A stretch of DNA of 64,000 nucleotides from a virus: IMG/VR virus record IMGVR_UViG_3300036715_000153, positions 1 through 64,000 of that record; one strand, given 5' to 3'. Shown one piece after another: positions 16,882 through 38,915 of this stretch. Position 1 is the stretch's first letter; the number at the start of each line of letters is the position of its first letter. A model generated the notes under the pieces. That model was not told the origin of the DNA. It searched no databases and was given only the letters and a program-made list of their open reading frames with translations. Both the position numbers and the translations under genes were made by a program.

Positions 16882-17126
16882 CATTTGATGTTCAGAGGAA
16901 TTCGTTATTTTCCTCCCGCGTTTGCTGCTGTATATTCCTATACAGATCGGACTATATCTTCATCCTATTAATAGGAGTTCTGCATTTCGAGGCACTTGCC
17001 CCTACGCCTTTCGGCTAGTCTCTACACCTTCCCATATCAGGGCTTGGCTCGGTATTGTCCGTTCTGGAGTTCCACCGAATTAACAGAATTTTCATTAGAA
17101 ATTACTCTCTAATGCGCCACAATTTT
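16882..17126 (-). ncRNA. ORF-less group I intron (245 nt) in gp43B
   Basis: Minus strand: P AAUUCGGUGGAA, Q AAUACCGAGCC, R GUAGAGACUA, S AAGAUAUAGUCC; 5' exon ends in U, intron ends in G; guide UUGU-GGCG pairs both exons. Confidence 0.9.
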
Positions 17127-17237
17127 AACGGTTTTTAATCCCAGATCTTTGACAGCCAATCTTGAAATTGTCTTAGACAGACTTTCCTTTTTCCTCAAAA
17201 GCTCGTCTAATGGTATCGCTGTTAAATCTTCCAACAT
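17127..17237 (-). CDS. 43B: DNA polymerase gp43B exon 1 (37 codons, not in track)
   Basis: AAGGAG SD then MLEDLTAIPLDELLRKKESLSKTISRLAVKDLGLKTV; splicing restores KTVANSLYG. Confidence 0.85.
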
Positions 17238-34916: not shown

Positions 34917-34992
34917 TGGACCCGAAGACAGGACTCGAACCTGCATAATGCCTGAGTAGAATTCAGGTGCCTTTCCATTAGGCTACCTCGGG
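34917..34992 (-). tRNA. tRNA-Arg(UCU)
   Basis: CCCGAGG/CTTCGGG acceptor, CCTGA-ATTCTAC-TCAGG, GTTCGAGT T-loop, CCA encoded. Confidence 0.8.
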
Positions 34993-35001
34993 GTGTTGTA
35001 G

Positions 35002-35090
35002 TGGTAGTCCAGACAGGATTCGAACCTGCAACGATCTTTCGATAATGAATTATGAGTTCACTGCCTCCGAACCAATAGGGCTTCTGGACT
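35002..35090 (-). tRNA. tRNA with CAU anticodon (Ile2/Met?) and long variable arm
   Basis: AGTCCAG/CTGGACT, GTGAA-CTCATAA-TTCAT, ATC-GAAA-GAT variable arm, GTTCGAATC, ACCA. Confidence 0.8.
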
Positions 35091-36409: not shown

Positions 36410-36504
36410 CTGTTTCGTTTAAGTTCATGTAGTGATTATACAGTCTTATACGAATAAATCAACCTTTATTTGCAACTATTTGGAGTGGTTGTAAGTTGTT
36501 GATT
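36410..36504 (-). promoter_or_regulatory. early promoter cassette copy 5 with IHF-consensus site
   Basis: AATCAACAACTTA(36504-36492); TTGATT-N16-TATAAT-CACTACATGAACTTAAACGAAACAGGAG. Confidence 0.78.
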
Positions 36505-36515
36505 ATTAAAGTCGT

Positions 36516-36539
36516 AAAAAATCCCCATTTCTGGGGATT
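36516..36539 (-). terminator. intrinsic terminator after tmRNA
   Basis: AATCCCCA-GAAA-TGGGGATT-TTTT. Confidence 0.85.
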
Positions 36540-36820
36540 AGTGATTAGATTGGGTAATAAGGTTCTAATCGACCCCAAGCAGTTATTACGCTGCTAGTGC
36601 GTATGCGCCCATTGAGTCATTTGCGTTTAACAAATTGCTTGATTTACTGTCATCGCCTACAGTGTTGCATTCTTCGTTATCTCACGTCAGTCGATTCCAA
36701 TTCATCCCCATTATTAAGTATACTCGAAATCGCAACTCCCTGAGCCGTTTGCGTCTGGAATATACTTAATGGTGGAGATGGAGGCATCGAAGCCTCGTCC
36801 TGCATGCCTTCACTAAAAAT
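36540..36820 (-). ncRNA. ssrA: circularly permuted (two-piece) tmRNA
   Basis: 3' part GGACGAGGCTTCGATGCCTC-CATCTCC-ACCA (ends 36770) precedes 5' part GGGGATG-AATTGGAATCGAC (starts 36709); G3.U70; tag ANDSMGAYALAA** at 36624-36583. Upstream boundary uncertain. Confidence 0.92.
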
Positions 36821-37040
36821 GACGAGTCAAAGTCACAAGGACGAATGACTCGTGGGTACAACAATTCTGTCTACCATTAAGTCCTTACGAACCGACCGAG
36901 AAACCTCGATCCAGTATTGCTACAGGTCGTAGACACCTTTGATACCCGAGACTTCGGTCTCTGTTGCTTTCTTAATTTAGTTGAATCACTGTTGAATCTT
37001 GTTCGTTACCCCAGCGGATGCGAGTTGTTTCCATATCAAT

Positions 37041-38475: not shown

Positions 38476-38550
38476 TGGTCTCTCCTGTCAGAATCGGACT
38501 GACGATTTCTGCGTCCCAAACACAGCGACTTACCACTAGCCTAAAGAGAG
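38476..38550 (-). tRNA. tRNA-Pro(UGG)
   Basis: CTCTCTT/AGGAGAG, CTGTG-TTTGGGA-CGCAG, GTCAG/CTGAC, ACCA. Confidence 0.85.
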
Positions 38551-38560
38551 ATAAAACTTA

Positions 38561-38634
38561 AATCAACTATCTGGAATCGAACCAGTCTCGCACTAATAAG
38601 TTAGCCGCTCTGCCGATGAGCTATTAGTTGATTT
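38561..38634 (-). ncRNA. tRNA-like RNA with 4-nt anticodon loop, no CCA
   Basis: TAGCTC-ATCGGCA-GAGC D arm, GCTAA-CTTA-TTAGT, CTGG-TTCGATT-CCAG, AAATCAACTA/TAGTTGATTT. Confidence 0.55.
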
Positions 38635-38641
38635 ATAAAAA

Positions 38642-38717
38642 TGGCTCCCCAGCGTGGGCTCGAACCACGGACCTAACGATTAACAGTCGTTTGCTCTACC
38701 TACTGAGCTACTGAGGA
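38642..38717 (-). tRNA. tRNA-Asn(GUU)
   Basis: TCCTCAG/CTGGGGA, AACGA-CTGTTAA-TCGTT, GTTCGAG, GCCA. Confidence 0.93.
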
Positions 38718-38828
38718 ATTGTTTAATTTGTATGGCAGACACACGAACACTGTGTCCCTTAAACGCTATTATGATACAAAACTTGGTTTGACCTGTTGGC
38801 GTATCTGCTAACCAAAAGTCGAAATATC

Positions 38829-38915
38829 TGGTGCGAGAGACGGGGGTCGAACCCGTATGTCTTTACGGACGAGAGATTTTAAGTCTCTTGAGTATACCAA
38901 TTTCTCCACTCTCGC
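38829..38915 (-). tRNA. tRNA-Leu(UAA)
   Basis: GCGAGAG/CTCTCGC, AGAGA-CTTAAAA-TCTCT, variable arm, GTTCGAC, ACCA. Confidence 0.92.

Follow-up and report, generated by a model that had tools for sequence, protein, structure and literature searches.

A complete, circularly permuted tmRNA gene in the genome of an uncultured T4-like aquatic phage

Introduction

When a T-arm, an acceptor strand and a CCA end lie ahead of a short reading frame on one strand of a viral contig, does the arrangement constitute a working ribosome-rescue RNA, to which family of permuted tmRNAs does it belong, and what could a phage gain from it? We address these questions for a locus in the first 64,000 nucleotides (hereafter the window) of IMG/VR record IMGVR_UViG_3300036715_000153, which is 140,394 bp long and bounded by direct terminal repeats. 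A preliminary description, made from the letters of the window, had read the locus as a phage-encoded, circularly permuted (two-piece) tmRNA, named Rfam models, ARAGORN and phylogeny as ways of checking this, and suggested that the permutation might reflect either host lineage or an independent event.

Precursors of two-piece tmRNAs are cut at the ends of the tRNA-like domain by tRNA-processing enzymes (PMC11915505, PMC9004378). Buchholz et al. (2022) described a two-piece tmRNA in phage Melnitz and found tmRNA in 402 of 18,146 phage genomes, 53 of them with the two-piece form and mostly aquatic (PMC9004378), and a 2025 tmRNA database holds 79 unique phage tmRNAs (PMC11915505). GenBank annotates tmRNA in the Stenotrophomonas phages Marzo, Bhz51, Yut2 and Yut3. 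Two-piece tmRNAs of phages are thus already published (PMC9004378) and present in GenBank, and the gene described here is a further, divergent example.

Results

The minus strand of the window carries a complete, circularly permuted (two-piece) tmRNA (ssrA) gene, extending from about 36863 to 36516 (Table 1). Two Rfam models recognized it above their cut-offs: RF01850 (beta_tmRNA) with 114.2 bits (E 5e-34; cut-off 84) and RF04321 (tmRNA_permuted) with 97 bits (E 1.4e-17; cut-off 47). These scores, along with the covariation presented below, bear out the reading of the locus as a phage-encoded permuted tmRNA. The alpha-type model RF01849 reached 29.6 bits, under its cut-off of 50, and the cyanobacterial permuted model 25.2 bits, again below cut-off. 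The predicted precursor is more stable than shuffled sequence (z = -4.85) and its match to tmRNA is far past chance; in its minimum-free-energy (MFE) fold the T-arm reappears, as do the stems of the acceptor and the spacer. Within the family the gene is not a high scorer, ranking in the bottom half among the 15 beta-type loci with scores.

Direct reading of the minus strand between 36400 and 36960 located every element that the preliminary description had listed, each at the position given there, with one amendment to the gene's extent: the start had been placed at 36820, and the 5′ strand of helix P2 at 36863-36857 moves it to near 36863. ARAGORN gave a divided answer. At default settings it missed the gene; at 80% of its default thresholds (-ps80) it called a permuted tmRNA starting exactly at 36863, with the tag ANDSMGAYALAA. 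In silico, deleting the 32-nt hairpin of P2 or lengthening the T-loop by one base failed to restore the default call, and detection returned only at the relaxed threshold; no single feature therefore accounts for the miss.

Table 1 Features of the permuted tmRNA gene, in order of transcription
Feature	Position	Strand	Basis
Complete transcription unit of the permuted ssrA, from the acceptor piece through intervening segment and coding piece to the terminator	36516..36863	-	RF01850; RF04321; ARAGORN -ps80
P2c 5′ strand TGTTGTA, partner TGCAACA (36663-36669)	36857..36863	-	Covariation; 81% of cells paired
32-nt hairpin ACGAGTCA ... TGACTCGT inside the P2 5′ strand	36822..36853	-	8 perfect pairs, read directly
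P2b, TTTTT (36819-36815) with AAGAA (36674-36670)	36800..36819	-	Window sequence only
P2a, CATG-CAG (36806-36800) with CTG-(A)-CGTG (36690-36683)	36800..36819	-	Covariation in part
T-arm, 5-bp stem GAGGC/GCCTC and 6-nt loop TTCGAT	36781..36796	-	98.5% paired; in MFE fold
Acceptor 3′ strand CATCTCC, discriminator A, CCA	36770..36780	-	100% paired
60-nt intervening segment, expected to be excised	36710..36769	-	9-bp closing stem, 36769-36761 / 36722-36714
Acceptor 5′ strand GGGGATG, 5′ end of the coding piece	36703..36709	-	Direct reading; Rfam; covariation
Hairpin at the PK1 position, CTGT-AGGCGATG-ACAG	36647..36662	-	Rfam alignment; covariation in 2 pairs, 71% of cells paired
Tag reading frame, GCA resume codon, ANDSMGAYALAA, TAA TAA	36583..36624	-	Direct reading; ARAGORN -ps80
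3′ H-type pseudoknot	36543..36577	-	S1, S2 and conserved A-rich loop ATTACCCAA
Pseudoknot stem S1, (T)GGGG with CCTT(A)	36577-36573 with 36562-36558	-	87% paired; two pairs covary
Pseudoknot stem S2, GATTAGA with TCTAATC	36570-36564 with 36549-36543	-	S2-type stems in each relative
Intrinsic terminator ATCCCCA-GAAA-TGGGGAT + T5	36516..36538	-	Aligns to the RF01850 terminal hairpin

To find relatives, we used the conserved start of the coding piece as the query for a scan of IMG/VR; this returned 119 loci, 39 of them permuted in appearance. Rfam classed the 16 most similar loci as beta-type in 14 cases and alpha-type in one, and the last passed the cut-off for the general permuted model only. 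We aligned the window gene with 12 relatives (13 sequences; alignment A2) and evaluated the window's own pairings on this alignment. Overall, 83.7% of cells were paired, compared with 72.2% in shuffles and 40-52% when partners were slid, and 23 pairs showed changes on both sides.

All seven acceptor pairs (GGGGATG/CATCTCC) formed in every sequence, and G3.U70, the alanine determinant already noted in the preliminary description, was read in the window and occurred in 13/13 sequences. The closing pair of the T-stem covaried (CG in seven sequences, UA in five and GU in one), the T-loop was of the TTCGA type, and the columns of the D-loop analogue (GGAC / TGG..TCGAC) were invariant. The window's T-loop has 6 nt, one fewer than the canonical 7, making its T-arm 16 rather than 17 nt long.

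Between the two pieces, the intervening segment is closed by the stem TTAAGTATA/TATACTTAA, in which 9/9 pairs changed on both sides and 98% of cells were paired, and the MFE fold adds an inner stem, CGCAA/TTGCG; no ORF was found within this spacer (36769-36710). An RNase P site is expected before G36709, by analogy with the established biology of two-piece tmRNAs. Viral genes mostly have long spacers (14-143 nt), and in the bacterial beta-type genes sampled the spacer measures 18-32 nt.

The tRNA-like and mRNA-like parts are linked by the long helix P2, of which P2c covaries and P2a does so in part; in the outer helix, P2c, double-sided changes were seen in 4/7 pairs of the 13-sequence alignment. 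The 32-nt hairpin inserted in the 5′ strand of P2 belongs to the window phage only, with a gap at this place in 12/12 aligned relatives. The opposite strand of P2 runs on uninterrupted, implying that the hairpin simply bulges out. We looked by eye for a second stem that would complete a pseudoknot at the PK1 position and found none that was convincing; the loop is invariant among the relatives, so covariation is uninformative there.

The tag frame opens with the resume codon GCA at 36624, directly after TTAAAC, and closes with a double stop (TAA TAA, 36588-36583). ANDSMGAYALAA thus combines an alanine resume codon, a hydrophobic degron ending in AA, and a stop. The frame is open in every relative, each tag having an alanine start, a beginning of the form AND, ANN, ADY or AAND and an AA end; the sequences themselves vary (examples are ANDSYYAMAA, ANDSYYGEDRLAA, ANDERFALAA, ANDEKFALAA, ANDSVYDVALAA and ANNEAFMLAA). 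The AND...Y pattern resembles the SspB-binding portion of proteobacterial tags.

Downstream of the tag lies a single pseudoknot, for which the preliminary description had proposed the stems GATTAGA/TCTAATC and TTGGG/CCCAA. The former is present as S2. The latter was abandoned as a conserved stem: it is paired in 47% of cells with zero compensatory changes, it would bring the two 3′ strands together with no nucleotides to separate them, and CCCAA is part of the conserved A-rich loop motif AAC(C/A)(C/G)AA. Its place is taken by (U)GGGG/CCUU(A), S1, which is paired in 87% of cells in a comparison of 17 sequences, two Rhodocyclales genes among them. One pseudoknot followed by a terminal hairpin is the 3′ domain specific to the beta type, whose model also scored best, and S1 is common to the Rhodocyclales genes. 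The terminal hairpin (36538-36516) was not listed by a simple consensus scan for terminators.

A maximum-likelihood tree of 64 permuted tmRNAs separated the alpha-type genes from a beta-type group (support 99/93), within which lay one clade from Rhodocyclales, another uniting Stenotrophomonas copies with phage Marzo, and many unresolved viral lineages. As for the phylogeny named as a check, the window gene fell within the beta-type group, together with L058 (from a 144-kb contig) and L082/L111 (99/93) and, next, L059 (95/90), though on a long branch and with at most 68% identity to any relative. Model scores and tree together indicate that this tmRNA is of the betaproteobacterial type, because it scores 114 bits with the beta model versus 29.6 and 25.2 with the alpha and cyanobacterial models, and is nested among viral beta-type genes. 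The same evidence speaks against an independent permutation; given the tree position, the permuted order was inherited with the beta-type family. At the nucleotide level the gene is isolated: blastn against 50,697 GenBank phage records gave zero matches even at E = 1, and megablast of 15 kb of the window gave none either.

Our search pattern picked up 26 other permuted genes in IMG/VR (loci L004-L114), and 22 of them have a 16-nt T-arm with a 6-nt loop, while the Rhodocyclales and Stenotrophomonas genes sampled all had the canonical 17-nt arm. Across the genomes of 185,579 species the short form occurred in only 42 places, mostly in Mesorhizobium and Aliihoeflea with scattered others. ARAGORN calls the Mesorhizobium and Aliihoeflea loci permuted (alpha-type) tmRNAs with the tag ANDNYAEARLAA, and the short T-loop therefore seems compatible with function. 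Default ARAGORN missed 13 of 42 short-T-arm genes and 0 of 26 canonical ones.

The genes around the tmRNA all lie on its strand and are phage-like. They include genes for an SbcCD-type nuclease and for a UvsW-type helicase, and a 7-deazaguanine module is represented by QueE and FolE. Cyanomyophages, Melnitz and the Pelagibacter phages HTVC008M and Mosig have helicases with 38-40% identity to the one encoded here. With identity to aquatic myophage proteins no higher than this, the phage is a distant aquatic T4-like myophage lacking a close cultured relative. tRNA genes flank the tmRNA at 34917-35090 and 38476-38915, and a position between tRNA clusters recurs in the relative L059 and in phage Marzo. 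Two of the ARAGORN tRNA calls are atypical, one (38562-38631, minus strand) having a two-letter 'anticodon' and no assigned identity and the other being a tRNA-Met(CAT) of 89 nt, unusually long for its type (35002-35090, minus strand).

The preliminary description had noted that smpB is absent from the window, and this absence extends to the whole 140,394-bp record, though a CheckV completeness of 78% means that smpB could in principle lie outside the assembly, despite the terminal repeats. No tyrosine integrase gene was found in the record, and a glutamine riboswitch looked for near the tmRNA was absent. Searching IMG/VR with the downstream 154-aa ORF and the SbcC-like protein returned no close relatives, and the 119 viral loci contained no tblastn match to any of 17 ORFs neighbouring the tmRNA, so that synteny was not usable. 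The 154-aa ORF (36428-35964) belongs to PHROG 20074, of unknown function; among the neighbouring small ORFs only one had a PHROG match, to a family of unknown function, and none had a confident Pfam match (one was sub-threshold).

We found no sigma-70-like promoter directly upstream of the tmRNA. A conserved (T)AGAAT immediately ahead of TGTTGTA was considered as a -10 box and rejected: in the bacterial Rfam model these A-T..G residues belong to the RNA itself, downstream of that gene's own -10, and the tmRNA sequence of phage Marzo comes directly after tRNA-Leu. The non-coding stretch upstream of the tmRNA (36864-37040, minus strand) folds like shuffled sequence (z = -0.27), and the adjoining 36821-36863 is taken up by the P2 strand and its insertion hairpin. 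A sigma-70-like promoter, TTGATT-16-TATAAT (36435-36462, minus strand; 10/12 matches), lies between the tmRNA terminator and the 154-aa ORF. Elsewhere in the window, Rfam placed a group I intron at 16928-17137 (minus strand; RF00028, 90.2 bits).

Discussion

The locus is, with good probability, a functional beta-type two-piece tmRNA gene carried by a lytic T4-like phage. Its anatomy, family, structural conservation and lack of an accompanying smpB are described above; expression, processing, charging, tagging and benefit are what we infer from them. A single precursor of about 348 nt would be transcribed from the unit. Host RNase P would cut before G36709, trimming would expose the encoded CCA at 36770, and the 60-nt spacer hairpin would be removed. 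The acceptor piece (about 94 nt) and the coding piece (about 194 nt) left behind would be held to each other by the acceptor stem and by P2. G3.U70 would let host AlaRS charge the RNA, and host SmpB and EF-Tu would deliver it to stalled ribosomes, where translation would resume at GCA and append ANDSMGAYALAA, whose ALAA end, the ClpX degron, would direct the product to ClpXP-type proteolysis.

Because the whole record holds no SmpB, the window tmRNA must rely on that of the host, with which we assume it to be compatible. The benefit to the phage may be that ribosomes stay free and amino acids are recycled during host RNA destruction or nuclease cleavage of mRNA and tRNA. Such a role in maintaining translation is consistent with the place of the gene inside a phage tRNA-gene region, an arrangement that recurs in relatives.

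A functional RNA could also serve mainly in counter-defence, relieving stalls caused by abortive-infection nucleases, or in the selective degradation of host proteins to feed phage synthesis, the latter an idea put forward for Melnitz (PMC9004378). We regard this emphasis as possible but unlikely. Linkage to tRNA genes fits it, and the sequence itself gives nothing by which to tell counter-defence from general rescue; however, no defence or anti-defence gene was identified adjoining the tmRNA. The usual interpretation of phage tRNA clusters is that they maintain translation or counteract nucleases.

The divergence of the gene raises a different question, namely whether it is a decaying or repurposed copy that is transcribed without tagging, for instance as a tRNA-like decoy that titrates SmpB. 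There is precedent in the RNA of mycobacteriophage DS6A, which consists of a tRNA-like domain (TLD) only and has been proposed to titrate SmpB (PMC4131195). The long branch and the identity of at most 68% to relatives would suit such a fate, as would a score under ARAGORN's default threshold, a T-loop one base short and a 32-nt insertion in P2, and either of the last two could impair function. Yet all modules are whole and the tag frame is open, with a canonical ALAA end and two stops, whereas the DS6A-type mimic has no tag frame. The short T-arm is common to 22 other viral genes and to the permuted tmRNAs of Mesorhizobium and Aliihoeflea, and the insertion is a clean hairpin opposite a continuous P2 strand. 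Our data thus make decay or conversion to a decoy quite improbable. That the gene is not the phage's own but a host ssrA fragment at a prophage site, contamination or an order-swapping assembly artefact is highly improbable: tmRNA genes are frequent integration sites and their fragments do occur in prophages (PMC9004378, PMC4383910), but this gene is full-length rather than a 3′ fragment, is embedded 36 kb into a contig of 140 kb that has terminal repeats and lacks an integrase, has same-strand phage genes and phage tRNAs on both sides, and shares its swapped order with more than 20 independent viral contigs and with cultured phages.

A functional beta-type tmRNA invites comparison with the bacterial genes of that type. 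The Rhodocyclales genes (RF01850; Methyloversatilis, Rhodocyclaceae) share with it the gene order, P2, the PK1-position hairpin, one 3′ pseudoknot whose loop reads AAC(C/A)(C/G)AA, and TAAAC before the resume codon, and their tags, ANDERFALAA and ANDERYALAA, are likewise of the form AND...ALAA. They differ in having a 7-nt T-loop (6 nt in the window) and a spacer of 18-32 nt (60 nt in the window) and in lacking the extra 32-nt P2 hairpin; moreover, the window gene is phage-borne and falls outside the Rhodocyclales clade.

Among cultured phages, the Stenotrophomonas phages Marzo, Moby, Mendera and IME-SM1 (Menderavirus; annotated in MZ326868.1) also carry a beta-type permuted tmRNA among tRNA genes and, like the window phage, have no reported smpB. 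The tmRNA of Marzo scores 94.6 bits with RF01850 and 119 bits with RF04321, confirming that it is permuted and beta-type. Unlike the window gene, it has a canonical 7-nt T-loop, directly adjoins tRNA-Leu, encodes the tag (A)ANDDSYTVRIAA, and sits on a separate branch with chromosomal Stenotrophomonas copies. Melnitz (Methylophilales) and Mosig (Pelagibacter) are closer in kind, being T4-like aquatic myophages of about 141 kb with a permuted tmRNA and no smpB, and their UvsW proteins are 38-39% identical to that of the window phage. Their tmRNAs, however, are alpha-type (RF01849, 106.7 and 67.6 bits, respectively) and their neighbouring genes differ. In Melnitz a glutamine riboswitch, lacking in the window, lies immediately 3′ of the tmRNA, and the annotated tmRNA feature (MZ577097.1, 45984-46436) includes the RF01739 aptamer (52.8 bits). 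The nearest relatives (L058, L082/L111 and L059) share the 16-nt T-arm and a long, stem-closed spacer, and their tags start ANDSYY... or AANDAY...; they differ from the window in lacking the P2 hairpin and in having non-homologous neighbour genes (tblastn), at no more than 68% identity.

These comparisons count against the suggestion that the permutation reflects host lineage. Melnitz, a phage of an OM43 methylotroph, carries an alpha-type gene, and Stenotrophomonas phages carry beta-type genes though the four Stenotrophomonas genomes checked have a one-piece tmRNA. The tmRNA type is an unsafe and poor guide to the host. A broader possibility is that beta-type two-piece genes are mainly phage-borne and move horizontally, rather than marking betaproteobacterial descent, and that the window copy, with its short T-loop and P2 hairpin, is adapted to the phage, whether to suit a factor of the phage's own or to stay distinct from the host tmRNA. 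Most beta-type lineages found here are viral, and the gene of a cultured Stenotrophomonas phage is sister to second ssrA copies in Stenotrophomonas chromosomes that retain a standard tmRNA; even so, we offer this only as a speculative and rather unlikely extension.

What the locus adds is one more large aquatic phage with its own ribosome-rescue RNA, reliant on host SmpB. The understanding of tmRNA is unchanged by it; its value lies in the correct annotation of this genome and in the caution that the type of a phage tmRNA alone should not be used to predict the host. In addition, ARAGORN, the program most used for surveys of such genes, overlooked the window gene at default settings, as it did 13 of the 42 with a short T-arm, and phage tmRNAs are therefore probably undercounted in published surveys.

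The Stenotrophomonas lineage offers an observation of its own. Several species of this genus have, on chromosomal contigs (L177, L180, L186, L179), an additional ssrA that is permuted and beta-type, and the tmRNA of phage Marzo (L171) is the sister of this group of copies (support 99/94). The copy in L177 sits among chromosomal genes (for an amylase-family enzyme, a histidine kinase and a HAD hydrolase) with no obvious prophage. In four Stenotrophomonas genomes the permuted copy is accompanied by a one-piece tmRNA of the standard kind, scoring about 190 bits, and the Methyloversatilis genome has a permuted tmRNA only.
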